A stretch of DNA of 64,000 nt from Phoronis australis (taxonomy: Eukaryota > Animalia > Phoronida). The notes below the pieces were generated by a model. It made no database searches. It saw only the letters and a program-made list of their open reading frames with translations, and was not told the DNA's origin. A program made the translations under genes and the position numbers. Shown piece by piece: positions 4,755 to 56,390 of the stretch (positions are counted from its first letter, which is position 1; each line of letters begins with the position of its first letter). The DNA is taken from positions 40,195 through 104,194 of the forward strand of contig NMRA01000202.1 of assembly GCA_002633005.1 (NCBI GenBank). Direction: 5' to 3'.

Positions 4755-4755
4755 N

Positions 4756-6177
4756 TATAGACCTCGTTGGTGAAATGAAAACTGACTTAGACCAGGGCCC
4801 GGTCTCTAATCTTTGTACTCGAAACGAACTCTAAACTATTTTTGGCAATTTCTCTGCTCCTTTTGTGCGAACTTAAGATAATTGATTATCAGTTAAACCA
4901 CCTTTATGAAATGCAGATTATCTTTAAACCTGGTCTAAGTCCAGTTTAAACCAGGTTTAACTTTAAACCACCTTTATGAATTCGGCCGTAATTGTCAGTG
5001 ACAACAATGAATTCCATTGTGGTACAATTGGTGATAAAATGAACTATCACTTGATGCAGCATAAAATGACTGTAAACCCAATAACATATTATGGATTCAT
5101 TCATTAGTCAATTTCCAAGAGTTCATGAATTTTAATGTTTTATAGGTCTTTATTTCTTTATTCATTTCATGACACTCTACGGACTCATTCAATTGCCACA
5201 TTTCATGGGGCTCCAGTAATTTGATGAACTGTTCTTCCAAAACCTGGTCTAATTTTAGACCCGACTTGCATTTCACCAACATGGTTTAAGAATCTGAAAG
5301 CCTGGTTTTGCTAGACCAGGGAGCTGGTTCAGTAAAAGCAGGTTTAAAGTATCAAAGGCACCCCACTGTGTCGAGCTGGGTAAACCCAACAACGAAACTA
5401 TTGAAGTGCTTCAATGAAACCTTGATCACGTGGGTATACAATGGCATGCACTAGTAGAATCAGTGCAGACATTTACGAAAAACATCTGGATCCGCCCCTG
5501 CTACCTTTGATCTAGTGTCATAGTAAAACTGAATGTTGAAAATAGTCCATTTTCACTCTAAAACTGCGTCGCAAATGCACTCCGCGGCATCATTCAGTTG
5601 TACCTATACCATGCAAGTCTGACATATTTAACAGTTAAACCTGGGTCTGACCAAGTCTAAAGTTAAACATGGTTTAAGATCTTAATACAGGTCTAAAGAA
5701 TATAGACCTCGTTGGTGAAATGAAAACTGACTTAGACCAGGGCCCGGTCTCTAATCTTTGTACTCGAAACGAACTCTAAACTATTTTTGGCAATTTCTCT
5801 GCTCCTTTTGTGCGAACTTAAGATAATTGATTATCAGTTAAACCACCTTTATGAAATGCAGATTATCTTTAAACCTGGTCTAAGTCCAGTTTAAACCAGG
5901 TTTAACTTTAAACCACCTTTATGAAATCGGCCGTAATTGTCAGTGACAACAATGAATTCCATTGTGGTACAATTGGTGATAAATGAACTATCACTTGATG
6001 CAGCATAAAATGACTGTAAACCCAATAACATATTATGGATTCATTAATTAGTCAATTTCCAAGAGTTCATGAATTTTAATGTTTTATAGGTCTTTATTTC
6101 TTTATTCATTTCATGACACTCTACGGACTCATTCAATTGCCACATTTCATGGGGCTCCAGTAATTTGATGAACTGTT
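4756..6177 (+). repeat. Direct duplication of ~478 bp (4756-5233 and 5701-6177)
   Basis: Near-identical copies from tatagacctcgttggtgaaatg to ttgatgaactgtt, offset by 945 bp. Confidence 0.9.
5234..5933. mobile_element. Possible PIF/Harbinger-type non-autonomous element (right end)
   Basis: Ends in AAACCACCTTTATGAAATCGGCCG followed by TAA. Contains internal inverted motifs catttcaccaac/gttggtgaaatg and acctggtctaag/cttagaccagg. No left TIR was found. Confidence 0.4.
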
Positions 6178-8919
6178 TTCTTCAATGCATGATGCATTCA
6201 GCCATTCAAATATCGGTACATTCTTTGGAGGTGTTAAGACCATTTTGGTAACCAATGGTGTACACAAATCAAGTCGCCCCTTTGTGTTGGCCAGGCAAAA
6301 TGATCCCTTAACTGCACTTTAACTTAAAAGTTAGTCTGTTTGTGAGATGTTAATATTCAGCCTGTTATTCAATTGCTTCCCTCCTTTTCAATCACCAAAC
6401 CTTCCTTACATTTCACACATTCTAAACAAACCACATCTTCATGTCTTAACCACGTTTTCGCTTTGTACCTTGTAACAATTACTACGTTCACATTTTGTAA
6501 CGTTCAATAATTCAATGGGGTCATTCAACTCAATTTACACATGATCTAACAGCCTTTTGTACTGATGAGCTTTCTTGAACATGCGTGGAATGTTTTAAGC
6601 ATTTTATAGGTTTACTTTGGCCTTTTGCTTCCTCGCACTCTTCAGAATTACTTATTTTTACGGGGTCTGTCATGGTACACCATATATTTTAGGGGCTTAT
6701 TAATTTGTCAGATATGAAACATTGTACCATTAATTTGTTCTGTTGCATGAATCTTTTTAGGAATCTAAAACTAAAATGCATTTGCTTTTCACAAAAGCAA
6801 AAATCGTTCACCTTTTAATCTTCTATTTCACGGCTCCAGACATAATGTTTTTGGCATCCAATTACATCTTTAAAAAGATTCTTTTGATAGCTGTATTTAC
6901 TTGAAGATTCATTAAATCATTGAATTTCAGTTTCATTCACTTGTACTTCAAAACTATTTATTCGATGCATTTCATGGCAGTACTAACCACATTTTTTCTT
7001 TATCCATGACAGATCATGAATTTGTCAATTTTTGAGAGTTCATTTATTTTTAGTAATTTACTGGTTTTTATTTTGAGGTTCCTTTAATAACGCAATACAG
7101 ACTCATTCAAATGTCCCATTTCACACGACTTTATCAATTAATTCAATGCACTCAATTGTTCAGTTCATGATGCATTACTTAACTCTGCTTTCATTAAATT
7201 CTTTGGGGGTTTTAAAATACCTCTGATAAGGGATGGTGTACATAAATGAAGTCATCCATTTCGTTGTTCCATCATGTCATTCAGTTGTCCCATTTCACAT
7301 GACTCCAATAATTCATTCCACTCATTTTTTTCAATTCATCAAGCATTACTGACTCCATTCAAATTTCACTATACTCTTTGGGAGTATAAAGATCACTTTG
7401 ATATATAGTGGTGTGCACAAATCAAGTCACCCATTTTGTTGTTCCACCATGTTCTACAATGATGGTTGGCGCAATTTAACAAAGAAAAACAAGTTGCTTT
7501 CCTCAGAAATTGGAAACACATTGTTAATTGTCAGTGAACCAATGAATGCTATAATTTTATTATTTGTGAAAAAGGAACCACCACTTGATGCAGCATAAAA
7601 TAACTGTAAATGCAATTAAATGCTAGCAGAACACTTCTCCCATCACTTTACAAGCGAATATGTAGCTTTGAAAAAGAAAAAAATGCTGCATTGCCCATAA
7701 GCCTCAGGATGGTGAATGAACTATAGTTTTAGCCAGAACTGGGTTCGTCAGTTACCTTTAAGAATACAGTTGTGAAAAAGGCTATAGTTTTGATAGCCAT
7801 GTTTGATCAACATGTTCCCTTGGGATGAATTTAAAGTCAGTCAGATATTCAATTTGTTGTTCCCTGCTCATTCACCATCCCTACCTTCCTTTTTCACATG
7901 TTAAACAAATTTTCACATCTCTGCTTATTTAGTTTATTTAATACATTTTCGATTTCAATTTTCTAACTCTTTGTAGGTTCACTTTCTTTATAAAATATTC
8001 TAGCTGCATTAATTCATTCACTTTTCATGAATTTGTTCATTCTAGAAATTTCAGAATTCAATAATTCAATGCATTTAATGGGTTAAATTATCATACTTCA
8101 GGACTCCATTAATTTGAAGCCATATTTCTTCAATCTTCTACCCTTTAAATTTTCATATATTTTTGGGGGGTATTATAACTGTAAACTCTACTTTGCTCAC
8201 TAGACAATGACAATGATAGTTATTGATTACTGCTTATATATAATTATGTTCATTCAACTCATTTTAGAGATTCATGAATTCATGAAATTCAGTTTTGTTC
8301 ACTTGTTGCTCATTTTCTGTTTCTAGTTATATCATTAGATTCCCATGATAGTGCACTTTACAGATGGCTTAATGTATTGCTTTTGCGGATTTGTTTATTT
8401 TACGCAGCCCATAATCCTCATTATTCTCAACACTCATCCTAGACATACATCTCCTCTGATGTGTTCAGGTCTCATTTGTTATGTGTATGGTTGATTATAG
8501 GCATCTATGCAACCCCGGACAGAGTGCAGAAGGTTGCGATTCTCCACGGATGTTGGATGAGCCTTGATGGTTGGACAGCCGATCGATGGTTAGGCATCAA
8601 CATGGAAATAGTGAATTTTCAGATGCAAAAAGGCAATTCACCATGTTTGGGTATTCACCTCTGTGTAGATGGGCACTTACGTACAATGGATAGGATGCGT
8701 CAGTGCACAGCATCAGGTGCATGGTTGATGCTGATGATGCATGATCCTTCAAGTGACATTCCTCAATGCATGAACAGTTGATATGCAAATACTCAATGGA
8801 ACACATTGAGATGCAGACAATCAGTGTTCAGAGACAAGACAGCAATCCTCAAAGCATGCAGTTGTTGAAATGCTTTGGCCAACATTGATGAGCAAATATT
8901 TAGGAAGTGGATGACAGAG

Positions 8920-11900
8920 AATGATCATTAATGCCTGGATAATCTTCGATGTGAGGCCGTTCGATATGCAAACAATTGAAGACAGGCATCATTGCAGAGA
9001 CGATCCACTTTTGGAAACCAGATAACAAGCAATCCTTCATGCACTAACAGTTGAGATGTACTGATCAGCAGACATGATTGCCTTCAACCTCTTGCAAACC
9101 AACTGTGCATCGATGCTTAGGATCAACCTCATAGATATCGATCTTTCACAAACTCGGAACATCTACATATTGAGGACTGCCATGTACTTTCTACCTACAA
9201 AACATGCGTCCATTGTCGCTTGACCTCAACTGTACCCATAGCAACTATCCACCCACCTGGACTGTCATTATGTGTACAATATATCAGCTGGATGCATATG
9301 CACCATCTACCCACCTAGACAGTCAATATGCATACAACCAATGGCAGGCGTCAATGAACGTATGTTTAGAAGGTGGACAGTACATAGCTATCCTCAATGC
9401 ATGGATGTACTTAAACGAGTGATGATAGGTGTTGAAATGCATATCATTGTTGTGCAAACATCATACGACGATCCCAAAGCGTGGGCATTCCTCAAGGCAT
9501 GGACGGTCGATATTCCTCAATACATGGATCCAACAGCTGCAGGCAGTTGATGCTAATCCTCGATGCGTGGCCCTTCCATGATAAAGAGTTGAACATGCGA
9601 ACAGTTGATGGGATCTTGAAAACACCCATCTTTGAACCATCATTATATGGACAGTAGACTGTGATTCTACACGCATGGACGTCCCTCGATGTGCCAGTGG
9701 TCTGTATGCAAATAGTAAATGGCAAAGACCAATGAGTGAAAACGCAGATTATGGATGGAAGACACAGATCCTGAGATGCATGGAAGTTTCTCCATAATTG
9801 TATTCCATAATTTGTTACCAACTGAACTTATACACTGGAGTCAGTGGAAATCTCAGTTGCTGATTGAGTGCTGTGTTGACAATGTCGATTGCTAGCTCAA
9901 AATTACCACGAGTCTTTGAGTCACCAGAAAATGGGTTTCCAGACAACTTCTGCATCAGGTGCACGCAAATACGTCGGGTGTGTGCTCCTCAGTTCATGGT
10001 TTGATTTTTGCAATGTTCTTGCCTAGTGATTTTGGATACCACATCTTGGGCACGTGGCGATGTATACGAGGGTGAGACTGATCGCTGCAACTAGTCATGA
10101 ATTGAGCAACTTATTTGAGAAGACATTTGGCAGTACATGCTTTATGTGTAGTTTTGTCCACGGCTAAGTCAGTAGATTACTCAGTTTCAGTCAGTTTCAT
10201 TTTTTCTGCTTCTGAACTGCTGAAAATGGTTGTGCAAATGATATGATCGGCATATAGACTCGTCCTTTTCATCTGGGTTTGCATATCCACTCAACATTTA
10301 ATTACATTATCATCGACATTTCAAGTCTGATTTGTGGAGGCACAGCTCCACAGACAGTCAATGGGGGGATTTCTGAGACTTGGTTTGTGGATACTAGATG
10401 TTTCAAGAGCTGATTATCATACATATATGTCATCCAATTTTTGTAACAACTGACTGATCTCATGTTACCCAAGATTTTTGGGACAGCTGTTTAATATATG
10501 GAGTGCTGTATCTCAGCGCCCCTCAACGGATCTTTCAGAAAATAATTAATATGACATTAATTTTGTCAAGCACTGCGTATTCCGTTGCTCAGTTAAATTT
10601 GCTGTTATCCTTAGGTGCTACAGGTACCATTTTTTATAAAGTCGACATACAACTTGTTAATAGCTCTAGCTAAATTGTTTTCGGTTGGCACTGGACGTGA
10701 GATGACCTGTGATGGCCATTTTTCGATGTCACTTTGCCGAGTTCTGTTCTGCAGCAATATTGGTATGATACTCATGCTGCAGATCACATTTTTCACCAAG
10801 ACCATAATAAACTTCACACTCAAGGTTTCTGTAATAGCTCAAGGCTGTTTTATTGTTGCATGATGGCGCCAGAGCATCCATTTCTCAGTTTGCTGCTTTG
10901 CGGAACCATGGGCATTTTTTGAAATTTGAGGTGTGGCTGGATAACATCAACTGCTATCTGCAGTTCTACAGTCACTTTTTGTTATTGAGTTATTCGAGAT
11001 TTTCCACGGAGTCCTCATTTGATTGATTTCCTGCGCTGTATTTCCTGCTTTCCTTCGATACCAGTTACCTAAATTTGACAGGTGGACAATAGATCTCAAG
11101 TACCATTTGCCATACGCATAACTTTTCTCTCATCAAGTTACTTTTCTCCTCTACTCCAGAATATAGCTGGCTAGATGACGGCTCTTTATTAAATAATTCC
11201 TCACTGCACATTTTCTTGTCTATCATAGTCGTGCTGCAGGACTTGTTTTACTCAGTAATTCGTTCTTGCATTTGACGTGTCATTAGTTTGGCACATTTTT
11301 CTGATGTTAGTTGGTTTTTACCAACATACAGGTATCTTTATGCATCGCTAACCACACTATTGTAGTGTTCATTACATAACATTTTGCCGTTTTACTTTGG
11401 CAGGTTCATTGACAAGTCATATACCAGTATTTCAATAATTGATAACTTTTTACAGAATTTCTAGTTCATCACACCCATCTTCACCGTTACATGGCTGTTT
11501 TAGCAGTTACTCAATTCACTTATCCATTCTTCTTTACTTTTTGCCAGTCATTTTACACACTGCAAATTCTTCAGTGACCATATGGTTTTATTTTTCTCAT
11601 TTCATTGGTTCATCTCGTTCCTGCACTTTACGTTATGTATTACATGTTCATAAACCAGATGCTTTTAGAGAACTGTCATCAGCCAACTTTGTTTCGTTTC
11701 ATCTCCTCGAATTCCCTTGTGGCNAATGATCATTAATGCCTGGATAATCTTCGATGTGAGGCCGTTCGATATGCAAACAATTGAAGACAGGCATCATTGC
11801 GCAGAGGACCCACTTTTGGAAACCAGATAACAAACGATCCTTCATGCACAAACAGTTGAGATGTACTGATCAGCAGACATGATCGCCTTCAACCTCTTGC

Positions 11901-14543
11901 AAACCAACTGTGCATCGATGCCTAGGATCAACCTCATAGATATCGATCTTTCACAAACTCGGAACATCTACATATTGAGGACTGCCATGTACTTTCTACC
12001 TACAAAACATGCGTCCATTGCCGCTTGACCTCAACTGTACCCATAGCAACTATCCACCCACCTGGACTGTCATTATGTGTACAATATATCAGCTGGATGC
12101 ATATGGACCATCTACCCACCTAGACAGTCAATATGCATACAACCAATGGCAGGCGTCAATGAACGTATGGTTAGAAGGTGGACGGTACATAGCTATCCTC
12201 AATGCATGGATGTTCTTAAACGAGAGACTGACCGATATCCACACAATTTTGCAAACATCACATGATGATCCCAAAGCGTGGGCATTCCTCAAGGCATGGA
12301 CAGTCGATATTCCTCAATACATGGATCCAACAGCTGCAGGCAGTTGATGCTAATCCTCGATACGTGGCCCTTCCATGATAAAGAGTTGAACATGCGAACA
12401 GTTGATGGAATCTTGAATGCACCCATCCTTGAACCATCATTATATGGACAGTAGACTGTGATTCTACACGCATGGAAGTCCCTTGATGTGGCAGTGGTGT
12501 GTATGCAAATAGTAAATGGCAAAGACCAATGAGTGAAAACGCAGATTATGGATGGAAGACACAGATCCTGAGATGCATGGAAGTTTCTCCATAATTTGTT
12601 ACCAACTGAACTTATACACTGGAGTCAGTGGAAATCTCAGTTGCTGAATGAGTGCTGTGTTGACAATGTCGATTGCTAGCTCAAAAATACCACGAGTTTT
12701 GAGTCACCAGAAAATCGGTTTCCAGACAGCTTTTGCATCAGGTGCACTCGAATACGACGGGTGTTTGCTCCTCAGTTCATGGTTTGATTTTTGCAATGTT
12801 CTTGCCTTGTGATTTTCGTTACCACATCTTGGGCATGTGGCGATGTATACGAGGGTGAGACTGATCGCTGCAACTAGTCATGAATTGAGCGACTCATTTG
12901 AGAAGACATTTGGCAGTACATGCTTTATGCGTAGTTTTGTCCACGGTTAAGTCAGTAGATTACTCAGTTTCAGTCAGTTTCATTTTTTCTGCTTCTGAAC
13001 TGCTGAAAATGGTTGTGCAAATGATATGATCGGCATATAGACTCGTCCTTTTCATCTGGGTTTGCATATCCACTCAACATTTAATTACATTATCATCGAC
13101 ATTTCAAGTCTGATTTGTGGAGGCACAGCTCCACTGACAGTCAATGGAGGGATTTCTGAGACTTGGTTTGTGGATACTCGATGTTTCAAGAGCTGATTAT
13201 CATACACAGATGCCATCCAATTTTTGTAACAACTGACTGATCTCGTGTTACTCAAGATTTTTGGGACAGCTGTTTAATATATGGAGTGCTGTATCTCAGC
13301 GCCCCTCAACGGATCTTTCAGAAAATAATTAATATGATGATGACATTAATTTTGTCAAGCACTGCATATCCCGTTGCTCAATTAAATTTGCTGTTATCCT
13401 TAGGTGCTACAGGTCCCATTTTTATACAGTTGACATGCAACTTGTTAATAGCTCTAGCTAAATTGTTTTCGGTTGGCACTGGATGCGAGATGACCTGTGA
13501 TGGCCATTTTTCGATATGTCACTTTGCCGAGTTCTGTTCTGCAGCAATATTGGTATGATACTCATGCTCCAGATCACATTTTTCACCAACACCATAATAA
13601 ACTTCACACTCAAGGTTTCTGTAATAGCTCAAGGCTGTTTTATTGTTGCATGATGACGCCAGAGCATCCATTTCTCAGTTTGCTGCTTTGCGGAACCATG
13701 GGCATTTTTTGAAATTTGAGGTGTGGCTGGATAACATCAACTGTTATCTGCAGTTCTAGTCATTTTTTGTTCTTGAGTTATTCGAGATTTTCCACAGAGT
13801 CATCATTTGATTGATTTCGTGTGCTGTATTTCCTGCTTTCCTTCGATACCAGTTACCTAAATTTGACAGGTGGACAATAGATCTCAAGTACCATTTGCCA
13901 TACGCATAACTTTTCTCTCATCAAGTTACTTTTCTCCTCTACTCCAGAATATAGCTGGCAAGATGACGGCTCTTTATTAAATAATTCCACACTGCACATT
14001 TTCTTGTCTATCATAGTCGTGCTACAGGACTTGTTTTACTCAGTAATTCGTTCTTGCATTTGACGTGTCATTAGTTTGGCACATTTTTCTGATGTTAGTT
14101 CAGGTTTTTACCAACATACAGGTATCTTTATGCATCGCTAACCACATTTTGAAACTTCAGTTTTATCTGTCACACTATTGTAGTGTTCATTACATAACAT
14201 TTTGCCGTTTTACTTCGCCAGGTTCATTGACAAGTCATATACCAGTATTTCAATAATTGATAACTTTTTACAGAATTTCTAGTTCATCACACCCATCTTC
14301 ATCGTTACATGGCTGTTTTAGCAGTTACTCAATTCACTTATCCATTCTTCTTTACTTTTTGCCAGTCATTTTACACACTTTGCAAATTCTTCAGTGACCA
14401 TATGGTTTTATTTTTCTCATTTCATTGGTTCATCTCGTTTCTGCACTTTACGTTATGTATTACATATTCATAAACCAGATGCTTTTAGAGAACTGTCATC
14501 AGCCAACTTTGTTTCGTTTCATCTCCTTGAATTCCCTTGTGGC
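8920..14543 (+). repeat. ~2.8 kb tandem duplication (8920-11723 / 11725-14543) joined by a single N; probable haplotype overlap
   Basis: Both copies start aatgatcattaatgcctgg and end attcccttgtggc. They differ by scattered SNPs and small indels, and the junction is exactly the N at 11724. Confidence 0.9.
9078..9480 (-). ncRNA. Shorter paralogue of the double-hairpin-capped palindrome (candidate structured RNA); allelic copy at ~11885-12290
   Basis: 9165-9250 is an imperfect inverted repeat of 9316-9410. The centre (9230-9335) has two degenerate hairpins homologous to 22351-22458 and shares gacagtcaatatgcatac. Confidence 0.4.
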
Positions 14544-14662
14544 AAAGAATTTCTCTTCAACCTTGAAACAGGCAAGACTTTAACCCAGGGAGTGATTATG
14601 AATTTGCCCTGGTATTTCCTCTGTTCATATTTTGATTCGTCTCACTTAACGGCTTCACTTAC

Positions 14663-15027
14663 TTTTTTTTTTTTTTTCACTGTGATATATATTTATTGAA
14701 GGATACACAGAACATACAAAGAAATAATAACAAACCCAGAAACCGCGAAGCATTATATCTGGGTTGTAAACAATTCATAAATGAAACTTATATACATAGA
14801 GATATATACAATTAAGTAGTATCTAAAATAAGTATTCCAATACTTAGACATGCTATTACAGATATATAAAAACAAAAATATTTACAGATTCATGTAGGGA
14901 AATCAGATGCAACAATATTGATAAACGGTATATAAAAATTTGCTAACGTTGCTTAGGAGGAATTCGTTAAGAACAAAGTCAAGGTTAGGACTACCATTCA
15001 GTAATAATGTAACTCTAGTAGGGATAT
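14663..15027 (-). mobile_element. 3' end of a non-LTR retrotransposon (CR1/L2-group-like) with poly(A) tail
   Basis: Minus-strand reading IPTRVTLLLNGSPNLDFVLNEFLLSNVSKFLYTVYQYCCI* (stop at 14903-14905) resembles LINE ORF2 C-termini. It is followed by a 3' UTR stem-loop (aacccaga...tctgggtt), AATAAA and a 15-nt poly(A) (T run 14663-14677). Confidence 0.7.
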
Positions 15028-16323
15028 NTTTCCTCTGTTCATATTTTGATTCGTCTCACTTAACGGCTTCACTTACTAGTCATACCATTTTTCGAATTCA
15101 TCGGTTGGAACACGTACTACAGGTTTCTTTATGTTGCATTTTACTTTTTAGTAGTTATTCGTATTTTATTCATTCATAAAGTTTCCCAATACGTGGGGCT
15201 CAATTATTTCTCTCACTTGATCCGTCACACTCAACCAGTTTGTTTAGATGAGGCATTTTACAGGACTAGTTCATGTTTTTTCAAGTCTTAGAATTGATGT
15301 AGCATTCATTGATTCAACCCATTTCATTGATTTTGTAAATTTTCTCATTTTATTAGTACATCCAATTTTTACATTAGTCCATAATTAATTTGTCACACTC
15401 AACCAGTTTGTTTAGATGTAGCATTTTACAGGACTAATTCCTGTTATTTTTAACTGTTACACTTGATGTAGCATTCATTAATTCAGCCCATTTCACTGGT
15501 ATATTCAATTGTTGCCTTTAACTAAATAACTTTTTTTAACAGCTTCTTAAATGAGTTAAGGGGCTAGCAAACAGTGACTCGATGCTTTTGGCAGGTTCAT
15601 TAGTTTGGCATATTTTACAGGTTAAGTGACACTTCCCTTGCATATGTGTACATTTATGCTTCGTTTATTGCATTTCATAAGTTAATTTTATTTCCCCACA
15701 CATTTTGTTTTCTCACAGCTCATAGGGCTTTTGTTGTTTGTTTGTTGGATTTTACCCATTATTAAAGTCTCCCATTTTATCACAATTAATTTTTCACATT
15801 TCATGGTTACGCTTGATTTATACTATTTTAAAAGATTTTGCTGTTAACTTGTCTTCATTAGTTTACTAACTTTCACATTTTTTGGCTCATTTATTTTTTG
15901 CGTTAAGCCTCGTCTCACTGACATTGACTTCACATTGTCATTAGCATGTTAAGGATTCGTTTGTTTTGCCCAATTTCACCATTTTTTCAAGCCAAGGCTC
16001 CATTTATTTACCTGTTTTTGGTGTCAGTTTTTTGCAGCAATTAAAAGATCTTACTTAATCATTACATTTTACACCTTCATTCTCTCGCTTTGCTGGTTTA
16101 TCATTATTTCATCTCTTTTATTTTTTCGTGGCTTCATTATGTCTGTCACATTTTGCCGTCTTATTAGTTATTATGTGAATTTATTAATTTGTCCCATGAT
16201 AATTCATAAACTGATTACATTTTACAGAATTCTTGATTCATCACACTTCCTGTTTCATGATTGTTTAGCAGTTAATGGACTCACTCGTTCTTTGTACTTT
16301 CGTTGTCTCTTTTTGCTCATTTT

Positions 16324-16488
16324 TCGCTGGCACCTTTTGCAAAGTCTTCAGTGCTGATTATCATTTTATTAGTTTATCTAAACGTTGCACTTTACGCACC
16401 CATTTATTCGCTGGCACCTTTTGCAAAGTCTTCAGTGCTGATTATCATTTTATTAGTTTATCTAATCGTTGCACTTTACGCACCCATT
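16324..16488 (+). repeat. 84-bp tandem duplication
   Basis: tcgctggcacctttt...cactttacgcacccatt occurs at 16324 and 16408. Confidence 0.9.
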
Positions 16489-17362
16489 AATTCGACAATT
16501 CATTAACCAGTTGCACTTAGAGAATTGCCATCAACCCATTTTATTTGATTTCATCTCCTCGAAAGTGAATTATGACAGAAAAATTTGCCATATTGGTGGC
16601 ACAAATAAATTTTAATCTCGCAAAAGCCCAGACTTTAACCATTCAGCGTTCTGGAACTTCCCTAGTTCATTTATTTTTCACATTCTTTCTATCACTCTCA
16701 ACCTCTTGACTTGGTTATGTTATTTTATGAATTCATCATTTGTGTTTAATTTGGATCACCACAGGTTTCTCTGAGTCACATTTGACCGATGCATATTTTA
16801 TTCCTTCATAAATTTTCACGTTTTGTGGTCAGGATTGAATAATTTCTCGGATTTTATTTGTCAAACTCAACCATTTGTTTAGGTGTAAGTTCATGCTTTT
16901 TTCAATTGTTTTTACCTGCATACAGGTGTCTTAATATGTGACCCTCAAATTTTACAGGTTCGTTCTGCTTCGTCACACCCTATAGGGATTGTGGCATTTT
17001 TCACATTCATAAAAGTCTCCAATTCCATTAGTCTATTAATTTTTCACATTTTGTAGTTTCGTTTGAATTTTACTGTTTTACAGGTTTTTGTCATTAAAGG
17101 CGAAGACAACCTTTTTCCATGTCATTTTGAGCTAAAATAAGGTTGGTTGGTTATCCTAGACATATTTTTCACTTAATTACAGCTTTTCGTAATTTTATTA
17201 ATTATTCGTCCGCTTTTCCGGAAGTGACGTTTTAGGAGGCAAGCGCTTCCCGCCAATTTCTTTTCACATAGTCTGACTGTGAGAGCTGCCGAGTCAGTCA
17301 TTGTTCTACCTCGGTTGTGTTAAGTTCCGTCGTCGTTCGCTTTCATTTACTAGTCAGTCAAC

Positions 17363-18432
17363 ATGCCACACTGTTGCTGCGTACCGGGATGTAGTAATTA
17401 TCGGCTCACGCGCGCTTTGGGAGTGCCTTTGCATCGCTTTCCGATGGATGACACACTTCGCCGTACTTGGCTCGTTCGTGTGAAGAACGCAGCGTTACCC
17501 GTCCACGCAACGTACAAAGCAGTGGAGAATTACCGTGTGTGTGGCAAGCACTTTCTGCCGTCCGATTACGAAAGGGATTTGTACGCTGAACTGATGAAGG
17601 TCCCCGCGAAACAACGCTTGAAGAAGGATGCCATTCCGTCTGTGTTGATTCCCGGCAGTGCCCCGTCGCCACCCCCGAGAAGTGCGTTTTTGAAGCGAGA
17701 AGCCTCGCGAGCTGTGGCCAGTACAGTGACTGGAGCCAGTGGAGGCACTTCATCTACTGTCACCCGTGCCTCCGAACGTACCCCAGAGCGTGCAATTCCT
17801 GGAACCAGTAGTGATTCGCCCTGTGCTGTTTTCTCCAGCCCAGAGCCTCTAAGCAGCCCTGCAGCGATATTGAGTAGTGGGAGTGATTACAGGCCCAGTT
17901 CGACACCCAGTGAAGAGGACAGTTCGTCGTCCAGTGAACAGATCGGTGAGCCAAACTTTGATAAGTTTATTGTGGACTTGTCTAAAGTGTTGGAGCTATT
18001 TAGAAGGTGCCAGGTGTGTGGCGAGGGAGTCACGACACAATGTAAATAGTTTGGGTGCTCAGGTCACCATCCAGTGGGAGTGTGTCACGGGACACTCTGG
18101 CAAGTGGGACAGTTGTTCCTCTGTCCGTGGTATGCCGGAGGTCAACTTAACCATGTCCAGTGGTGTGCTCTTCACTGGAAACACGTTTCAGTCGGTGAAG
18201 ACAATGATGGACTTTGGAAAAGTCAAGTTTTTTTTCGAAAACAACATTCAACAACATTCAGAATTCCTATTTAATACCAGTTGTCAATGACGCATACATG
18301 TCACAACATCTCGAGTTGGTGGCGGAATTCATGGAGGAGAACTTGTCTGACTCACCAGGGCGGTCCGCCAAGTATACCACATACACTCTAATGGAGGAAG
18401 AGACCAAAAAGATAATTGATGTGGAACTCGGA
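17363..18432 (+). pseudogene. Kolobok transposase (THAP plus N-terminal part of the catalytic region), frameshifted and truncated
   Basis: THAP MPHCCCVPGCSN...HRFP...W...RVCGKHF...LKKDAIPS, then KFIV...CQVCG, frameshift, WECVTGH, frameshift in a T run near 18230, then DSPGRSAKYTTYTLME, which matches the Kolobok DSPGHSAKY motif. The usual preceding GDGR appears to be missing. Confidence 0.88.
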
Positions 18433-18674
18433 ACAGCACAAGCATTCAATTGAGGTAGGCATAACAACGCACACAGTGCATTTGCACCAAGATGTGTCAC
18501 CACGTCTGTCTTCAGTAGCCGCCTCGTTTCTCTCAACAGCGTCTGTGCCTGTGTGTACTCTGCCTCGTTGTACTCGGGCTCAAACATGTACCCACCCACT
18601 GAATGTCCGTGAAAAAATTCCTCGTCACCACTGCTGTGAACAAGGTCTCCGTCACTCACACTACTGTCACTGTG
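18425..18674 (-). pseudogene. KolX-like accessory protein (Cys-rich, related to the P2X7 C-terminal ballast region), frameshifted fragment
   Basis: The minus strand reads GGYMFEPEYNEAE and, after a frameshift near 18550, EDRRGDTSWCKCTVCVVMPTSIECLCCSE. The 5' end runs into the N gap. Confidence 0.8.
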
Positions 18675-20547
18675 NNNNNNNNNNNNNNNNNNNNNNNNNN
18701 NNNNNNNNNNNNNNNNNNNNNNNNNNNNNNNNNNNNNNNNNNNNNNNNNNNNNNNNNNNNNNNNNNNNNNNNNNNNNNNNNNNNNNNNNNNNNNNNNNNN
18801 NNNNNNNNNNNNNNNNNNNNNNNNNNNNNNNNNNNNNNNNNNNNNNNNNNNNNNNNNNNNNNNNNNNNNNNNNNNNNNNNNNNNNNNNNNNNNNNNNNNN
18901 NNNNNNNNNNNNNNNNNNNNNNNNNNNNNNNNNNNNNNNNNNNNNNNNNNNNNNNNNNNNNNNNNNNNNNNNNNNNNNNNNNNNNNNNNNNNNNNNNNNN
19001 NNNNNNNNNNNNNNNNNNNNNNNNNNNNNNNNNNNNNNNNNNNNNNNNNNNNNNNNNNNNNNNNNNNNNNNNNNNNNNNNNNNNNNNNNNNNNNNNNNNN
19101 NNNNNNNNNNNNNNNNNNNNNNNNNNNNNNNNNNNNNNNNNNNNNNNNNNNNNNNNNNNNNNNNNNNNNNNNNNNNNNNNNNNNNNNNNNNNNNNNNNNN
19201 NNNNNNNNNNNNNNNNNNNNNNNNNNNNNNNNNNNNNNNNNNNNNNNNNNNNNNNNNNNNNNNNNNNNNNNNNNNNNNNNNNNNNNNNNNNNNNNNNNNN
19301 NNNNNNNNNNNNNNNNNNNNNNNNNNNNNNNNNNNNNNNNNNNNNNNNNNNNNNNNNNNNNNNNNNNNNNNNNNNNNNNNNNNNNNNNNNNNNNNNNNNN
19401 NNNNNNNNNNNNNNNNNNNNNNNNNNNNNNNNNNNNNNNNNNNNNNNNNNNNNNNNNNNNNNNNNNNNNNNNNNNNNNNNNNNNNNNNNNNNNNNNNNNN
19501 NNNNNNNNNNNNNNNNNNNNNNNNNNNNNNNNNNNNNNNNNGAAGCGCTTGCCTCCTAAAACGTCACTTCCGGAAAAGCGGACGAGTAATTAATAAAATT
19601 ACGAAAAGCTGTAATTAAGTGAAAAATATGTCTAGGATAACCAACCAACCTTATTTTAGCTCAAAATGACATGGAAAAAGGTTGCCTTCGCCTTTAATTC
19701 GCATTTGATTGGTTCATTAATTTTCACATTTTTGGTATCATTTGTTTTTCACATTTAGCTTGATAACACTCATCATTTTCAATACGTTGTAACATTTTAT
19801 GGATTTGTTTTTCTCATACCATTTCACCATTTATTTGTTTTCTTGTTACTAATAAATGCATTAACCACTTTCATTCAGAGAATTGACATCAGCTCACCTT
19901 CTTTACTTACAACTCCTTGATACTAGATTTTGACAGAAAAAAATCTCCATATTCATAGCAAAGAACTTACTTTTAGCGTTGCAACAGGCCAGATTTTACC
20001 CATTTAGCAAGTCTGAATATGCCCTGGTATTTCTTCAGTTCATTTATTTTTCACGGCTTATTATACTCAAAGCATTCTTCAGATTCATCCGTCGCGTTCA
20101 GTTTGGACCATTGCAGGTGTAGTTGTGTCGCGTTTAACTGACTCACATTTCATTCACACATTCATTAAAAACTCCCATTCCATTAGTCCATTAACTTTTT
20201 CATACTTCATAGTCTCATTTGATTATACTGGTCTGTTTTACAGGTTCTGTCACTGAATCGTACTTTAATGACTCATTAATTTTCACATTTCTTTGAGTTT
20301 GTTTATTTTTCGCATTTATCTTCGTCACACTCATTGATTTCAAATACAGCATTTTAAGGATTCGGATTCGTCACTTTCATACAATTTCATCATTAGTTTG
20401 TCACATTACTAATTCATTAACCAGTCACTAGGCAAGACTTTACTCAGTTACCAAGTTTGAATTTAATGTCTCGCTGATTCTTCAATTCAGTAGCAACGAT
20501 GGTAATATGCACTCAAATGATATCCTCTGTCGAGAAACACTGAACAC

Positions 20548-20715
20548 AAAAGTTTACCCTTTCATCGAGGACCACTTTACTCATTTCACTTGATTGACAT
20601 TCAGTCATAAAAAATTGATAGAAAAGTTTTACCCTTTTTACGAGAAAGACTTTACCCATTTAACTTGATTGACATCCAGTCGTGAAAATCTCGACAGGAA
20701 GGTTTTACCCTTTTC
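20548..20715 (+). repeat. ~75-bp degenerate tandem repeat (about 2.3 copies)
   Basis: aaRgttt(t)acccttt at ~20549, ~20623 and ~20699; acttgattgacat occurs twice. Confidence 0.75.
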
Positions 20716-21529
20716 ACAGGGAGCGCTTTATCTGGTTAACAAGTCCCAATACTCCTAATTTCCCTGGTTTTTACTAAAAACCAGGGACGCTCTATTGACA
20801 ACCTCCTCATAGTGCACTCTCTACTGCTCAACATCCCCATTTCCCCCAGCCTCACGAAAAAAAACACATAACGCACACACTCACATACGCTGTCGTCATC
20901 ATAACATTCATGTCTCATTGTCACACTCATCCTAAGCAAGCCCACACACACTCGTATTACCTTGCCCATCGATAGCTGTGAATCATAGGCGCTGGTGCTG
21001 GAAGCCACTGGTTGCTGATGGTAGATATAGCCATCTTCAATACCAACCCTGTCTTTGGTAGAGTGAATGACTGAAACTAGGTATAGATATTCCTGAACAC
21101 CTTGACTTCTTTTTATACAACAAGGACATGTCATGACACAGTTCAAGGACTTGAAACTCACTAACAGGTGCAGGTCAGCAGATGGCGATCCAGGTTACCA
21201 TGGATGGTTGGCAGACGACACGTAACCACAGGGCATCATGCTGAAAGGAACACCATTCAGTAATGATCACCAATAAACTACAAGACCAGAGTTACAATCG
21301 CTATCAGGGTGACGTGCAAGTTGAGCCGTGCATGGACGCCAAAACAGAATTTTTGAGAGAATAGGGGATGGATGTTTACCTGAAATGTCAATTTGCTTGC
21401 GCCAGAGACATAATTTTTCACACAACCTTAGTGCACGACCATCAATGCACAAACAATAGTGTGGATATTTCTGAATACGTGGATGTTAAACATGTTAAAA
21501 TTTAGGACTTACACAGCAGAAGTATTGAG

Positions 21530-23480
21530 ACTGAATCAGCAGGAAGTCCTGATCACTTAGAGCTAATTCGGCCATCTTATTGGTGAATTCTCGATCAATT
21601 CATCTGATCCCTTTGCTGTGTATTATGCAATCCCTAGATCAACTGTGCAGGCACCAAAGAATGTCCATACTTCAAAGCCTTCCATCCAATCTCCAAATAA
21701 AGACTGTTCGTACATCGACACCTGATATCAACTGTTCGCATGTCAACCATTCACACATCGAGGAGCATCCATACATCAAAGTTCACCATCTAACACCTGC
21801 ATACCGATCATTCACATATCAAGGCCTGCATCCACACATCGAGGGTCGTCATCTTCTGTCCATAAACCAACTGTTGGCACATCAATGGCTGCCGTCAACT
21901 GTTCGCATATCAATCTTCCAAACACCAGAAGCATCCTAACATCAAAGATGGTCATCTGCTGTATGTATGCCAACCACCCACACATAGTGGATCATCCCCA
22001 TATCCACGATTACAATCAACTGTTCACATATCGACAGCCCACATATTGCGGAACGTCCATTCATTCAAGGATTGGCGTCTACTATCCGTATGTCGACCTT
22101 CCCCATACCGAAAAATGTCCATGCATCGAGGATCACCATCTTCCACACACACGTCAACTGCCCTCACACCGATTAACATCCACTCATCAAGGTTCACCAT
22201 CTACTGGCTACAAACCAACTGTTCCCACAACAACATCTACCATCAGCCATCCGCATACCAATCTTCCTTACATCATGGAACATTTACACAGGTAGAACCA
22301 TCAACTACCATTCACCAACCGATCATGTGTCCACTGATGCCTGCCATCCACTGTACGTATATTGACTGTCCTCCCATTGGGAGGACAGTCACTATACGTA
22401 CAGTCCATTGACCATATGCATATTGACTGTCCCGGTGGGAGGACAGTCAATATGCATACGATCAAGGGCAAGCATCAATGGAAACATGATCAGTGGGAGG
22501 ATGGGAGATGAAGATCCTAGATGTGTGAACATTCCTTGATGTGAGGAAGATCGAAATGCAAACGGGTGATGGCAGGCATGGTTGCGTGAACAGGTGGTCT
22601 GTGGACAGCAAATGGTCATCCTTGACGAGTGGACATTTCTCGATGTGTTGACGGTTGACATGTGTACAGAAGAAGACGATCCTCGATACATGGACATTTC
22701 TCGATATGTGGATGGTCGACATAAAAACAGTAGAGGACAATCCTCGAATGTATGGAAGTTCCACAATGTGTGGGTAGTCGGTACGTAAACAGTCGATGGC
22801 AATCCTGGATATGTGAACGTTCCCCTATGGGTGGATAGTTGACACGCAAACAGTAGATGACAATCCTTGATGTGAGAATGCAACTCAGTGTATGGACGAC
22901 CGATATGCGAACGGTCGATGACAGACATTGATGCGTAAACAATCAGTTTGTGGGCAGACGATGCCAATCCTCCACATCTGGATGCNCGTAAACAGTCGAT
23001 GGCAATCCTGGATATGTGAACGTTCCTCTATGGGTGGATAGTTGACACGCAAACAGTAGATGGCAATCCTTGATGTGAGAATGCAACTCAATGAGTGGAC
23101 GACCAATATGTGAACGGTCGATGACAGACATTGATGCGTAAACAATCAGTTTGTGGGCAGACGATGCCAATCCTCCACATCTGGATGCTCCTTTGATACG
23201 TGAATGTTCGAAATGCAGACAGTAGATAGTGATCTTCAACGTGTGGATATTCCTCGGAAAGTGGATGGTTGATATACGAACAGTTGACCCAAGGCACCAA
23301 CGCACGGACAGTCGATGCTCAGAAATTAGACAGCAATCTTCGAAGTATGGACATTCGCTGGTACATGCACAGTTGACTCGCAGATGGCACAGTACACACC
23401 ACAGTGATCAACTAGAACGACCTGGAATTCCCCGACATGATGATAGAATTAACGGTTATGACCAGGAATTCTCTGTTCAT
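21530..23480 (-). ncRNA. Long imperfect palindrome (~0.8 kb arms) with a two-hairpin apex; candidate long-hairpin RNA
   Basis: Left arm 21530-22350 is the inverted homologue of right arm 22460-23480 after removing the 22785-22985/22987-23188 overlap at the N. Apex hairpins lie at 22351-22403 and 22415-22458. The arms contain a degenerate 61-bp repeat. Transitions between arms mostly give G-U pairs on the minus strand. Confidence 0.55.
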
Positions 23481-26400
23481 CTGCCAAACTACTTCGCGTG
23501 TTTGTCGTGAACTGCGAAATGGATTCACATAAAATTACGAGTTGCCGAAAGGTGAACAAAATGCGTATGTTTTAGGAGCTAAATATTTTGGCAACATGGC
23601 ACTCATTTAGACACTGAAACTTTTTGGAAAGTCATGTAATTGCAACAATTAAATGTGGGCAAAGTGAGAGCATTTAAATGCAAAGATATGTAAAATTTTG
23701 TCGATTAGCATTCGGCCCAACTTGCCTGTGAACCCTTCTGAGTATGCACTGGAGGTGTAAAAAAACTCCCTGAACTTCAGTTTATCTGTACTATGCACAG
23801 TTGATGACAGGCAGGTGCCATTCCTTGATGTAGTTGACATGCGACTATAGTCGTTGACGGCAAGCGTAGATGTAATGACGTTCATCAATGCGTGCAGTCG
23901 CTTGGCCGATGGTCAATGACAGGCGGCCATGGTCAGCAAGATCCAAACCTAAGAAAGAAAAACCAAGAATGATAAATTAACTACAAGTCAATAATTACCT
24001 TATTCATCCACATTAACAATAACACACAGCTAGGGCACTTAATTGAGACATTCAAAAATCAGAAAGTGGGCATTAAGCTGAGCATGGTCACATTAACGGA
24101 ATTTAGATAAAAGTTGAGTTGCTTAATAAGAGTGTCTTGACCACTTTTGCACTTAAGTACTACTCTATGATGTTCATAAAAATTAGAAAACCATTTCATT
24201 ACTGCTTCAGTGTGTCTTTTTCAGCATGAATAATTGGCAAGGCACGCCGATATGATACCATCGACCTTTGTTACTGCCGAAAGATGAACTGACAAGACGC
24301 ACACATTTTGGAAGATAAATTTTTATGTGGGATTCTTGTTCGACTGACACTTTTAAGTAAGCTTGACTTACATAGGTTAGAAGTGGATGCTAAGCCACAC
24401 ACGAGTGAAGATTTAGAAATTTTGGTCACTGGCATTTGGCTGAATTTAGTTGTTGACAAGTAAAGGTAAAATTGCCAGTGTATACCCTGTGTCCATCCGA
24501 ATTACAGGTTCCTGATACATCTGTGCCCTTCCTTGATGCATATGCAATCACTATGTGGCTTAAGTACCTGATTGTGGCCAGGATGCACTGGCGTTCCTCA
24601 GGTCAATAGGATGGTCCCGGCTATAAAGCTCCTTTGTCCCCGGAGGTGGGAAATTGCGATGTTACATTGGCCTTGGTTTAGAAATCTCGGATACCATCGT
24701 ATCTACAAATAATTCTCAAGTTAATCCAACTTTCTGCCATCAGGGGTTGCAGCCACAGCACAGCTGAGCAAAACTTTTCTGTCATTGGAAGGTTGAACTC
24801 AATGCAATCAATACAAATTGAATGAAAATTGACAACGGTGACAACAAAACTTGATAACTGCTTGACAGATGTTGAAGCTTTGTGGGTAATCCGGGAGCAT
24901 CCTACTGAGTTATGGTTAATGACAGGCAGTGATGTCAGCAAATGGTGATCCTAGATGCATAGATGGAAAACAAACGTCACAATTCAATTCATAGAGAAGG
25001 AAGAAGGGTATGGAATGCGATTTTGTAATTAGGCTGAAATCACAGAAAATACGTGACATGAAAGTTGAGGGAAAGTTGGGGTCACTTAAGAAAATTATTA
25101 GCGTCATGATAGGACAAAGAATTGTGGCTCTTGTGAAGGAAAAGGAATGACAGTCTGCCAGGATTAGTGAAACTTGAAAAGTCGTAATATTATTGTAAAT
25201 CATGAAATCAATGATTTTACTAATTAGCTTGAATGCTGATACAACCCCTCTTCTCTGCCCTTTACAATTATCACAGAGCAGCATCCTCGACGGAACCTAA
25301 AAAGAAAAGAAGAAACAAAAAGTATTAGCAAACAAGTTTACAATCACTGTACCCACCCTGGTCTCTGCTTGTGGCATTTAATGGGACGTTCAAAAATAGA
25401 GATTCCCGTCAGAACACTTTTTTCAGAAAATCGCAATTGCATAAATTGAACGAACATAAAGTATTTATAAATGTAAATTTGGGCAATTAGCATTTCATTG
25501 ATCTTGGGTGTTTTAACCCTGACGAGTATGGTTGGAAATCTTTGTGTACAGATTCCTGTACTTCAGTGTCCATCTGTATAAACGGTTGCTGGCATCGTGG
25601 CCAAGCGCAAACATGAAAATGACATTACTCATATCTTAAGAGACATGGTTTGAAGGTCACCGTGAGTGAAAACAAAATATAATTGTGGGGCTCCAAAACT
25701 TGAAAGACACTTGGTCGTGAATCACAAAATTGATAATTTTTTCAGGAACCAGGATCGGCATACACCCCCCTCTAGTTACCACAGAGCAGCATTCTGAAAA
25801 GAAATCCAAGAAAACAAACGAAGTTCATCCATCGACTACACGTTCACGGATGCACGGCTGGTTGAACGGTGCTCAAGTAATGTGCCACAGCGAGGGCATC
25901 ATCCTGGAAGAAACCTGAAACAATAATTAATGATTGTCACTTGTCTACAAGACGCACAGGAGAACCAAACTGATGGTGAACAGGTGAGGACTGGTGAAGA
26001 TTGGCCACAGCGTTCTTAACACTTGTACAACCTGGAACTGATAAAGAACAAGAGAGGAATGAAAAGCTGTTGTGATCCTGAAAGTTCAAAAAATGCAGTC
26101 ATGAATCATTACATTTTGTAATTTGGCGCCCCTTCACCCCGCTCCACTTATCAACGGGCAGCATCCTGAAGGAAGGAACCTATAGAAAATGAAAATTCCA
26201 TCCATTAATTACAATTAGAAACGCACAAAAAGGACTTGAGGAACAGAAGGATGATAGGTCGGTAGCAGCTACGCAGAAATATTGCCTAAGCTGGTGGTTA
26301 TTAAATAACCACACAAAAAATTGTTTGTAATTGTTAGTCAGATTTGTTGATATGTAAGTAGTTGCGCAACCCTAGTGACCTAAGGTTTTAACCCTGTCTG

Positions 26401-33865: not shown

Positions 33866-33944
33866 GGACACGGAAAGAAAACGGTGGGCATAGAACTTCA
33901 GGACTTTAATGAAGTTCTCTGCCCACCGTTTTCTTTCCGTGTCC
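33866..33944. other. 35-bp near-perfect hairpin with a 9-nt loop
   Basis: ggacacggaaagaaaacggtgggcatagaacttca / tgaagttctctgcccaccgttttctttccgtgtcc, one mismatch. Confidence 0.85.
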
Positions 33945-36825: not shown

Positions 36826-37257
36826 CAAGGTACCTAAACTACACGGTCAACGGACTCATAAACACGACTCACGGACCTGCAAACACCGTCCACTTACTCA
36901 CAAACACGGGAACGGGCTCACAAAACACGTTCCACGCACCCAAATACACGGGACACGAACTCATATTCACGAGGAAACACGGTTAACGGACCGCCAAACA
37001 CGGGTCACGGACGAAATGAAGATGTCAGCTGAACCACGGGAAGCCGATGAGTCCGTGACCCGTGTTTGGCGGTCCGTTAACCGTGTTTCCTCGTGAATAG
37101 GAGTCTGTGTCCCGTGTATTTGGGTGCGTGGATAGTGTTTTGTGAGTCCGTTCCCGTGTTTGTGAGTCAGTGGACGGTGTTTGCAGGTCCGTGAGTCGTG
37201 TTCATGCGTCCGTGCCCGTGTTTATGAGTCCATTTACCGTGTAGTTTAGGTACCTTG
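36826..37257. mobile_element. Foldback-type non-autonomous DNA transposon
   Basis: ~190-bp inverted arms built from ~20-bp AAACACGG..CACGGAC subrepeats, termini CAAGGTACC...GGTACCTTG, and a 5-bp TSD TCATT at 36821-36825 and 37258-37262. Confidence 0.85.
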
Positions 37258-37715: not shown

Positions 37716-38877
37716 TTTTACCCGACAAGCAACACGTCGCCGGCACAGGCGCTTGGGTTTATCGCAATTGACGTCACTCATAATATATAAGAAAACATAA
37801 AGGTTGGACACTCGAAATCTGTTTGCTCAGAATTTTCTACTCAAATGTACATGGAACTCCACGAAACTAGCATCGAACAACTCTTAGAATACTTTCTATC
37901 ATTCGATCTCTTCAAATTGCCTTCAAGTGGTAATTTGGCGACAAAAATACCAAAAGAATGCCAAAATCACAAATTCAAGGACCTAATTCCGTGATGTCAT
38001 GGCAGACGGTCATCGCACATCCGGGTTTTGACAGACGCTCCCGAGCTAAATCCGAAAGTCTAATTTCGCGCGGCTTTCGCCGTCAATCCATCGACTACTT
38101 GATCATGAGAAGCAGAGAGCACTTTATTGCCAAATAAATGTAATTACTCACATATTTGTGTCAAATATAAATTATCCTGATACTGTATTGATATGCGAAG
38201 TTTTTTGTGTATTGTGATTTCTTATGAAGGTTTTACTTTTGGCCAAAACCATTGAGTTAACTCGTCGGCCACAAGCATTGTAATACTTGCACGGACTGCG
38301 TTTCCTGGCCGAGTGTGTGTTGTGCTTCAATCAAAAAAGTGCGTGATGTCAAGATGAGAAACAAGATACGCCAGTTTATGTAATAAAATTCTAAGTTAAG
38401 GGCTAAAATGAGCCGTCAGTGGAATAAAGTTACAAATAATAATTAAAATACTAACTTTAACATTCTCAATTAGTTGAGTTTTGGATTAGAATTAATGAAT
38501 TTGAAATATAGGTTGCTTGCTCAAACTCGAAGTTTCACCTACGACAGGCGTACAAGTTGAAGCACAACTGAAATCCGCCATGTTTACTATTTCAGGTCCT
38601 TGAATCCAGAGTTTTGATATTGTTTCTGAAATTCCATCGCCAATTCACCACTCACGAAGACAGTTAATGGGATCTAGGAAAGATAAGGCTTCGAAGGTTT
38701 ATGCAACACCAGACTGAGGGAGGTGCACGCAGATTTTAGTTGGATTTTGGACGGTTGAAGTTGGGAGCCTCGGCTTGGCAAAGTTTAAGTGTCCAACCTT
38801 TATGTTTTCTTATATATATATTATTAAGTGACGTCATTTGCGATAAACCCAAGCGCCGGTGGTCGCCGGGTAAAACT
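37716..38877. mobile_element. ~1.15 kb element with ~100-bp imperfect terminal inverted repeats
   Basis: ggcgcttgggtttatcgcaa.tgacgtcact...aagaaaacataaaggttggacact at ~37748-37812 is inverted at ~38788-38858. No ORF inside. Confidence 0.65.
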
Positions 38878-42800: not shown

Positions 42801-44032
42801 AATCGGTTCAAAATGTGTTGAAGTTTGCTCCACCAGCACTAAGCACACACACGTCCATGGAAAGTATTATGTCTTTAAAAAGTCAGTCGCAGCGTCAACC
42901 GTCTGATCATCAGCAATGTCGTCAACAGGAATCACATCCCATGGCGTCAAAGGACGACAGTTCTTCTATTTGTGCAATATCAAATTCATCTTGTCTAACG
43001 AAACTGTCTCCCAAGACACCTGCAGGACAGGCCCGTCAAAGTAATGTTCAGGAACAACCAGGGACTGGAGTTGACGCTTCCCCTACCTTGCCGTTGTCAG
43101 AACGAGTGAAGAGGCTGCGGAAGACGCCCGTCACCGAACGCACAAATTCACCGCCAATTCGAAACAGTCGAGACCGTTTAATGAAAGAAATTCAGAACGT
43201 GCACACGTTTTTCTACCGAAAGGATGTCACTAAAAAGTCACCACCTCAAGGTAGCGAGAAACAACAACCAGTATTCAAACAGGAATGGGTAGGAAAAAAG
43301 AAATTATGGATGATGGTCGACTGCGAAGAAAGGAGGGTGACTGAAAATGTGAACAAGGACTCTACAAGTTTTGAACCTGAACAATGTACCGCCAAGGAAG
43401 GTCAACCGGTTTCTCCTGTTAAGAAAATTGGGAGAATGATATCGAATGATGCATTTAAAAATCCTTCGTCGAGCAACGCACAACTACAAGGCAAAAATGG
43501 GCCTGGAGCAGCCATCTTCTCCCCAATCGAAAAGGAAACGCCTTCTCCAGAAACTTCGCTTTTAGCTACCCCAACTCCTCTTCATTCAAGAATGGCGTTA
43601 GAAACAACTGCTAAAGGTCAGCCACAAAATACCAACCATGTCCAGAAAGAAGACCAAAAACCGATATCCAGATGTCACTCACCATGTAAGCAAACGATAA
43701 ATAGGTCTTGTGCCGACAATTTTCATCAGGCTGGGGTTGCTCAAGCTAATTCCATTAGCGTTGATATTGACGAGCTAACTTTCACGTACGAGCTAGTTAT
43801 CCCTATACTGGACCGCTTGACTGAGGAGATTTTCGCCAATATAATTAGCCGTAGTGTGCGCACAAAAAACGAGCTGAATAACGTTGTGCACATGCTAGAA
43901 CGCGTGGGAGAACAGGTACTCGACGGCATAAAGATGGATGTTATTCGACGGGCCAAGCACGACAACGTGGAAGACGTTACTACATTCCTGAGCAAAGAAG
44001 CCGCATTACTCATTCAAAATGCTTTAATTCAG
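39830..44032 (+). CDS. Giant coding exon of a large low-complexity protein of unknown function
   Basis: 1401 open codons, acceptor tttttcgcaaacag at 39766, donor CAG|GTAAGT at 44032 (phase 0). S/E/K/Q/R-rich, with a predicted helical segment at the C-terminal end. Confidence 0.85.
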
Positions 44033-44063
44033 GTAAGTTAAAAGACGGGCAAGACACTTAGGT

Positions 44064-53013: not shown

Positions 53014-53130
53014 AATGATGATTACCTATAGGTGGCCTAGTTTTACTCGAGTACCCCGACGACGAGCACAACATGGGCTTGGAAGCTAAGTTCTCGAGTA
53101 AAACTAGGCCGCCGAAAGGTATTCATCATT
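53014..53130. repeat. Hairpin/mini-MITE with ~38-bp inverted arms
   Basis: aatgatgattacctataggtggcctagttttactcgag / ctcgagtaaaactaggccgccgaaaggtattcatcatt. Confidence 0.8.
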
Positions 53131-56054: not shown

Positions 56055-56390
56055 CTGGTAAAAAATGGTCACATTGACTATACACTGGTTATTCAACGGT
56101 TAATTTAACAAAGAAATACAAGTGAGATGCAAATTTGCCTTTGTTACAAAAATATGTCAATCAGTAAGTGAATGGCTTGCATGCCTTTGCTTCACACTGC
56201 TAACCAGGGGATGTAATCGTTCAGTGGCACAGGACACATATCAAAATATAACCCTTGTATTCCATGGCAAGTTGAACTATGAACTGAGTACAGTTTACTA
56301 AGATGCTGAGAGAATGCAGTACTGTGGTTGAGAACAATGATAACCTTGACTAAAACATTTATTCAACATCAAACCTCATTTCCTTTTGTT

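Follow-up and report, generated by a model that had tools for sequence, protein, structure and literature searches.

The window analysed here, a stretch of 64,000 nucleotides on contig NMRA01000202.1 of Phoronis australis, contains an imperfect palindrome, designated hereafter as copy A, together with an old relative designated as paralogue B. Their components, given in positions of the window, are as follows.

21530-23480: imperfect palindrome of about 1.9 kb defined by arm alignment, one copy of a family (copy A).
22430-23471, minus strand: 5' arm of the hairpin in a minus-strand RNA, made of degenerate 61/43-bp subrepeats; RNA depth 1-16 up to 22985.
21543-22382, minus strand: 3' arm of the hairpin, from the arm alignment; RNA depth up to 46.
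22350-22404, minus strand: apical hairpin H1, with 27-bp arms (96%, 26/27 pairs), which makes a T-shaped end with H2.
22405-22468, minus strand: apical hairpin H2 (89%); -39.7 kcal/mol on the minus and -31.0 on the plus strand.
22987-23188: second copy of 22784-22985 (96.5%, about 202-203 bp) after a single N at 22986; probable assembly overlap.
20656-21542, minus strand: non-hairpin 3' flank common to other family copies, with RNA in the same direction peaking at 20870-21083.
23737-24196, minus strand: degenerate extra subrepeats of the 5'-arm type upstream of the hairpin (profile match at 23831-23888, E=1.8e-5).
9070-9800, minus strand: old paralogue B, with a short 3' arm (about 9070-9225), a double apex (9226-9340) and a 5' arm.
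8436-9030, minus strand: extra subrepeats of the 5'-arm type beside paralogue B, found by profile search, for which no partner arm was found.
About 11875-12590: allelic assembly copy of paralogue B.

Alignment of the whole arms (21543-22382 versus 22430-23471), after removal of one half of the 203-bp duplicate, produced 841 columns: 612 Watson-Crick pairs (73%), 107 G-U pairs of a minus-strand RNA and 36 G-U pairs of a plus-strand RNA, the remainder being 83 mismatches of other kinds and 3 gaps. The original prediction, which described two inverted arms of about 0.8 kb and 70-75% identity, holds over this full length, and its hand count of G-U pairs in the inner segment (22021-22376 versus 22436-22790) was reproduced as exactly 43 on the minus and 11 on the plus strand (75.8% identity, p=1.4e-5). 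Over the whole arms, the ratio of 107:36 in favour of the minus strand (p=2.3e-9) extends along the stem, with the minus-strand class in front in 6/6 bins of 140 columns, whereas eight other inverted repeats of the window displayed no bias when pooled (27:25). CpG decay as the sole source of the wobble bias was considered and ruled out, as had been argued from the start, by the bias of 83:30 that persists outside CpG sites (24:6 at strict CpG sites); with a looser definition of CpG the bias is stronger at these sites (51:8 versus 56:28 elsewhere, p=0.01). The inverted repeat and its strand-biased wobble pattern are confirmed. The longest run of pure Watson-Crick pairs in the arm duplex is 18 bp, and the spacing of unpaired positions along the stem is no more even than random placement would give (p 0.11-0.51). 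Likeness between the arms is lowest at their outer ends (97/139 identical versus 104-107/140 in the other bins). Based on alignment and folding, the locus shares with hpRNA or endo-siRNA loci a long inverted repeat that can form a single duplex.

The minus strand is predicted to fold more stably than the plus strand, the inner 1158 nt (21828-22985) reaching -745.0 versus -597.6 kcal/mol. An apex closed by two separate small hairpins, as proposed in the original prediction, is the predicted minimum free-energy form of either strand; in the minus-strand fold it is 13.6 kcal/mol better than a forced rod, and both apical hairpins have an ensemble probability of 1.0 in the predicted fold. The apex is the best-paired part of the palindrome. 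The H1 loop region carries the H2 loop in both orientations (22372-22401 and 22430-22459), a single loose end from the DNA run corresponds to a flipped loop in another copy, and the loops of paralogue B both run the same way, which suggests micro-inversions of the apical loops. Motif scans with the apex returned 15 metagenome and 3 viral loci, all chance matches (the best of 23 bp), and a second motif had 0 matches in the genome and viral contigs scanned. A bacterial promoter scan, irrelevant for this DNA, was empty.

Degenerate units of 61 and 43 bp make up the arms, and this repeat composition explains the long open frames over them, which are devoid of any Pfam match. A phasing of 20-21 nt within the arms was considered and dropped, the actual periods being 61, 43 and 104. 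The subrepeats at 23737-24196 reach a local score of 69 versus 35+/-4 for shuffled sequences. No direct repeats of 6-10 bp abutting both arm ends, such as a target-site duplication, were found; within 80 bp of the arm ends there are four direct-repeat matches, AT-rich or internal. The 203-bp duplicate of the right arm probably reflects two alleles that overlap in the assembly rather than biology, because three other single Ns of the window also join direct duplicates that are 94-100% alike; at 4755, 11724, 15028 and 22986 these duplicates measure 478, about 2800, 49 and 202 bp, respectively. Such single-N joints are probable allelic overlaps in a polymorphic assembly.

A profile of the subrepeat unit recovered the layout of the palindrome at 8.4-9.9 kb, with a 5' arm, a double apex and a short 3' arm. 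In its lower stem, paralogue B is 54-61% alike to copy A. When both sides of a Watson-Crick pair of copy A are altered in B, 16/19 are Watson-Crick pairs again, and the 32 pairs altered on one side gave 15 G-U, 5 A-C and 12 other combinations. Its apex displays 4 two-sided changes relative to A, and both of its apical hairpins fold better on the minus strand. Taken alone, the arms of B have a minus:plus G-U ratio of 17:8 that is not significant (p=0.11); for the wider region (8450-9900) the plus strand has the more stable fold (-446 vs -417). The homology between the left flanks of A and B is not significant.

Several other repeats populate the window. Between hairpins B and A are degenerate T-rich direct repeats (11400-11720, 14200-17090 and 19700-20720; 68-79%), with weak RNA at 19800-20650 in the same direction as that of the hairpin. 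A remnant of a THAP-domain DNA transposon (17093-19698), with terminal inverted repeats of 157 bp (98.7%), a broken ORF (17354-18046) and an N gap (18675-19541), is inserted in this T-rich tract left of the hairpin; THAP was the only Pfam domain above cut-off among the 129 ORFs of the window, and the THAP ORF had no homologue among longer proteins. A foldback or MITE-like element at 36826-37256, which served as a control, consists of 21-bp subrepeats in arms that are 94% alike, is flanked by a 5-bp duplication and shows no wobble bias (3:4). Four short inverted repeats (33866-33944, 53009-53135, 62302-62455 and 37744-38861) are probably MITE-like and also lack wobble bias. Other elements include a satellite at 2111-4768, with 182-bp higher-order units of 26-bp monomers that carry CCAAT boxes and are 98% identical, and a 50-bp minisatellite at 56390-56980 (about 12 copies, 85% matches). 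A low-complexity open frame of 1403 aa (39830-44041, plus strand), for which searches of Pfam, homologues and the atlas returned no match, is probably a large exon. Within the window, the arms match only family members.

A search of sequencing runs listed eight that carry the locus or belong to its source: 4 DNA runs of one sample, 3 RNA runs of one other study and one doubtful run, with no small-RNA run among them. For copy number and expression, reads from the three RNA-seq runs, each sampled to about 18-19%, and one DNA run were placed on 19800-22985 with a likeness threshold of 85%. Copy A belongs to a repeated family rather than being single: 280 DNA contigs match it at 85% or more, 244 of which are less than 99% alike. 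Summed contig depth, which is not a copy number, is 98-546 over most of the hairpin versus 7-14 for single long contigs, and peaks at the apex (546). Multicopy depth and paralogue reads reach about 900 bp left of the arm end, to about 20650. At 21 arm positions the DNA majority differs from copy A, and adopting the majority letter gains a Watson-Crick pair at 12 and loses one at 6; of the other 3, two form one compensated pair and one is still mismatched. On this comparison, copy A looks somewhat decayed relative to its family. In the literature searched we found no account of this hairpin family, which is weak evidence.

The RNA of the family runs predominantly in one direction. The three runs contributed 297, 267 and 90 placed reads, with the first mate on the plus strand in 97%, 97% and 86% of depth. 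In most stranded libraries this orientation denotes minus-strand RNA, and the strand assignment follows this usual convention. Reads in this direction lie on both arms and the apex (up to 22985), mostly from other copies, with no read spanning the hairpin, and the level is modest (8-24 placed reads per million records). Plus-strand T>C, which equals minus-strand A>G and constitutes evidence independent of library type, accounts for 122/367, 119/363 and 95/256 of the variant places in the RNA runs (33-37%) versus 50/293 in the DNA run (17%; Fisher p<=4.3e-6 in each run), other variant classes being similar. Among the 40 listed of 491 variant rows, RNA carries C at 22697 and 22759 in 32/32 and 23/25 reads versus 0/356 and 0/361 of DNA depth, and at 22194 and 22209 in 79/84 and 80/80 versus 47/204 and 60/290. 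In the predicted fold, three of these four sites, 22697 and 22759 among them, are A-U pairs and one is an A-C mismatch. Both contexts are typical ADAR targets. Because RNA and DNA come from separate samples, allelic differences could account for individual sites, but they are an unlikely cause of the excess across the whole class. The strand-specific A>G excess in all three RNA runs relative to DNA indicates a duplex in vivo, at the level of the family and between unmatched individuals, and is as expected of an edited duplex; the family is likely transcribed from the minus strand with ADAR-type editing.

Copy A is at most a minor source of this RNA, most of which comes from other copies, because only 5, 3 and 0 reads of the three runs are 99% alike to it and 73/73 first-mate-plus reads at 20980 carry the letter of other copies. 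Distinct loose ends of reads occur at 21002/21004 and at 21506/21514, suggesting that at least two copies are expressed in the same direction. The earlier proposal that the hairpin is maintained at the RNA level in a minus-strand transcript is partly supported: the family has minus-strand RNA with an A-to-G excess, most of its reads being from copies other than A. Copy A looks weakly expressed or drifting. The suspicion of two independent transposon copies inserted head to head was set aside: the locus is one palindrome that has its double apex in common with an old paralogue and is free of a target-site duplication of 6-10 bp at its arm ends.

Taken together, we give a probability of about one half to the following reading. 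Transcription of family copies would run leftwards through the palindrome and yield an RNA predicted to form a rod of about 840 bp that ends in two hairpins; ADAR would edit this RNA heavily. Selection would likely keep the register of the rod, permitting pairs to decay to G-U and purging A-C, other mismatches and indels. A-to-G substitution may be cheap at sites where editing is near complete, as some copies are already G at 22194 and 22209. By analogy with fly hpRNAs and C. elegans rncs-1, the rod would feed Dicer as a substrate or compete for it as a regulator, and editing may limit the amount of duplex that is diced.

The strongest competitor, less probable than this reading although a serious one, regards the palindrome as an old repeat, foldback-derived or segmentally duplicated, a few copies of which are transcribed one way and edited by ADAR as self dsRNA, with no function required of the RNA; it would then be an ordinary edited repeat. 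The G-U bias would arise, as the original prediction also allowed, from one-sided A>G and C>T changes in the non-template strand while it is exposed, and the two-sided changes between A and B could come from arm-to-arm conversion. The number of related copies (280 contigs) suits such a repeat, as do arms of tandem subrepeats, which are found in foldback elements in the portion of PMC4079207 available. According to the accessible part of PMC5625713, palindromic Harbinger repeats of Xenopus are likewise hyper-edited, and palindromic repeats are commonly edited to a high degree without a function being required. Polarisation by the repeat-unit consensus, a crude and weak criterion that leaves 81 of 143 transition columns unpolarised and 2 with a third letter, assigns 23 of the minus-strand wobbles to A>G and 22 to C>T, the two products of deamination. 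One-sided mutation also predicts the excess of G+T (486 vs 399) displayed by the minus strand of the transcribed unpaired flank (20656-21540); two other flanks lack it.

Several observations do not fit a passive repeat. The arms have only 3 indels per 226 substitutions versus 40 per 554 in 12 control repeats (p=8e-4), a deficit that persists after removing the G-U excess (p=0.013). Changes private to copy A are not G-U-directed (7:9, p=0.008 against 75%), a result that weakens to 7:5 (p=0.19) without the 4 rows possibly favoured by editing. Plus-type transitions per transversion are at 0.43 versus 0.51 in the 12 controls, and minus-type ones at 1.29. A foldback origin is further at odds with outer arm ends that are the least alike, with family likeness running about 900 bp beyond the left arm and with the missing 6-10 bp direct repeat at the arm ends; the true foldback of the window (36826-37256) has highly similar arms, its own duplication and no bias. 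Selection is somewhat more likely than one-sided mutation as the source of the bias, and the many copies allow a direct test between the two, as well as of editing hard-wired into DNA.

It is improbable that the functional part is the T end, as two tandem pre-miRNA-like hairpins of 55-60 nt that top a long stem and would be cut by Microprocessor and Dicer. The apex is indeed the best-paired part, has the highest summed DNA depth, is kept in paralogue B with its two-sided changes and draws matches from miRNA-shaped Rfam models, though only weak ones (25-30 bits versus gathering scores of 73-74), but Rfam returned 0 matches at gathering score in the whole window. H1 has a loop of about 3 nt and a perfect or nearly perfect stem (26/27 pairs); template switching can render short hairpins in DNA perfect. 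Both hairpins are without the single-stranded flanks that Microprocessor needs, as described in the available sections of PMC12553114.

Least probable of all is a family that spreads via its own RNA, with A-to-I edits written back into DNA as A>G to make G-U pairs: an edited A-U pair would yield exactly this wobble, and the RNA at 22194 and 22209 is 94-100% G on the minus strand with a minority of DNA copies already G, but C>T makes up roughly half of the wobbles that could be polarised, a 5' G occurs at 24/107 wobble Gs versus 62/278 Gs of G-C pairs and so reveals no ADAR-type depletion, no reverse transcriptase was detected among the 129 ORFs scanned, and neither a poly(A) tail nor a target-site duplication was seen.

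Under the preferred reading of an edited and selectively maintained rod, the family likely behaves, by analogy, like a long hairpin RNA gene, the hpRNA class itself requiring small RNAs. More tentatively, it might represent an old set of kilobase-long hairpin RNA genes, present in many copies and sharing a conserved T cap, in which near-complete editing renders A>G changes in the genome neutral and so drives the G-U bias; the RNAs would act as a Dicer/ADAR buffer or siRNA source in a lineage without described hpRNA genes. Wobble bias in DNA alone can also predict which strand is transcribed and edited.

Among known systems, the giant miRNA hairpins of invertebrates (mir-12, mir-989 and mir-375) are likewise of kilobase size and highly paired; they carry a conserved miRNA duplex at their base, according to the text available from PMC12553114, whereas Rfam finds none at the base here. 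Foldback transposons (Tetris, Galileo) and palindromic Harbinger elements share with the family tandem repeats inside long inverted arms, numerous copies and editing when transcribed, as far as the accessible parts of PMC4079207 and PMC5625713 describe them. In contrast, the present family lacks a target-site duplication (6-10 bp searched, which age could erase), is least conserved at its ends, continues its homology beyond the left arm end to about 20650, and displays strand-biased wobble with almost no indels. C. elegans rncs-1 resembles the family in its non-coding long stem-loop, editing and branched end (the latter predicted here); its stem is about 300 bp at one locus instead of about 840 bp, 73% Watson-Crick, in many copies. 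In the portions available of PMC3409262, PMC4175353 and PMC4408787, rncs-1 is an ADAR-edited non-coding stem-loop whose editing lowers its small-RNA yield, and branched ends are reported to inhibit Dicer.

The Drosophila hpRNAs (esi-1/CG18854, esi-2/hp-CG4068, the pncr009 cluster and Nmy/Tmy) are also long inverted-repeat transcripts with an imperfect duplex of several hundred bp, about 400 bp for esi-1 versus about 840 bp here, and hpRNAs are rich in G-U. The arms of the present family are minisatellite-like instead of gene fragments, and its apex is T-shaped. Fly hpRNAs are amplified as tandem, local or dispersed copies and are defined by Dcr-2-dependent RNAs of 21-22 nt (PMC10317233 and PMC11840564, in the excerpts available); with their targets, these Dicer-dependent RNAs delimit the class, whereas the family described here is known from DNA and RNA-seq. 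In the literature compared, dedicated long-hairpin RNA genes are those of flies and C. elegans, a range that this family would extend to another animal.
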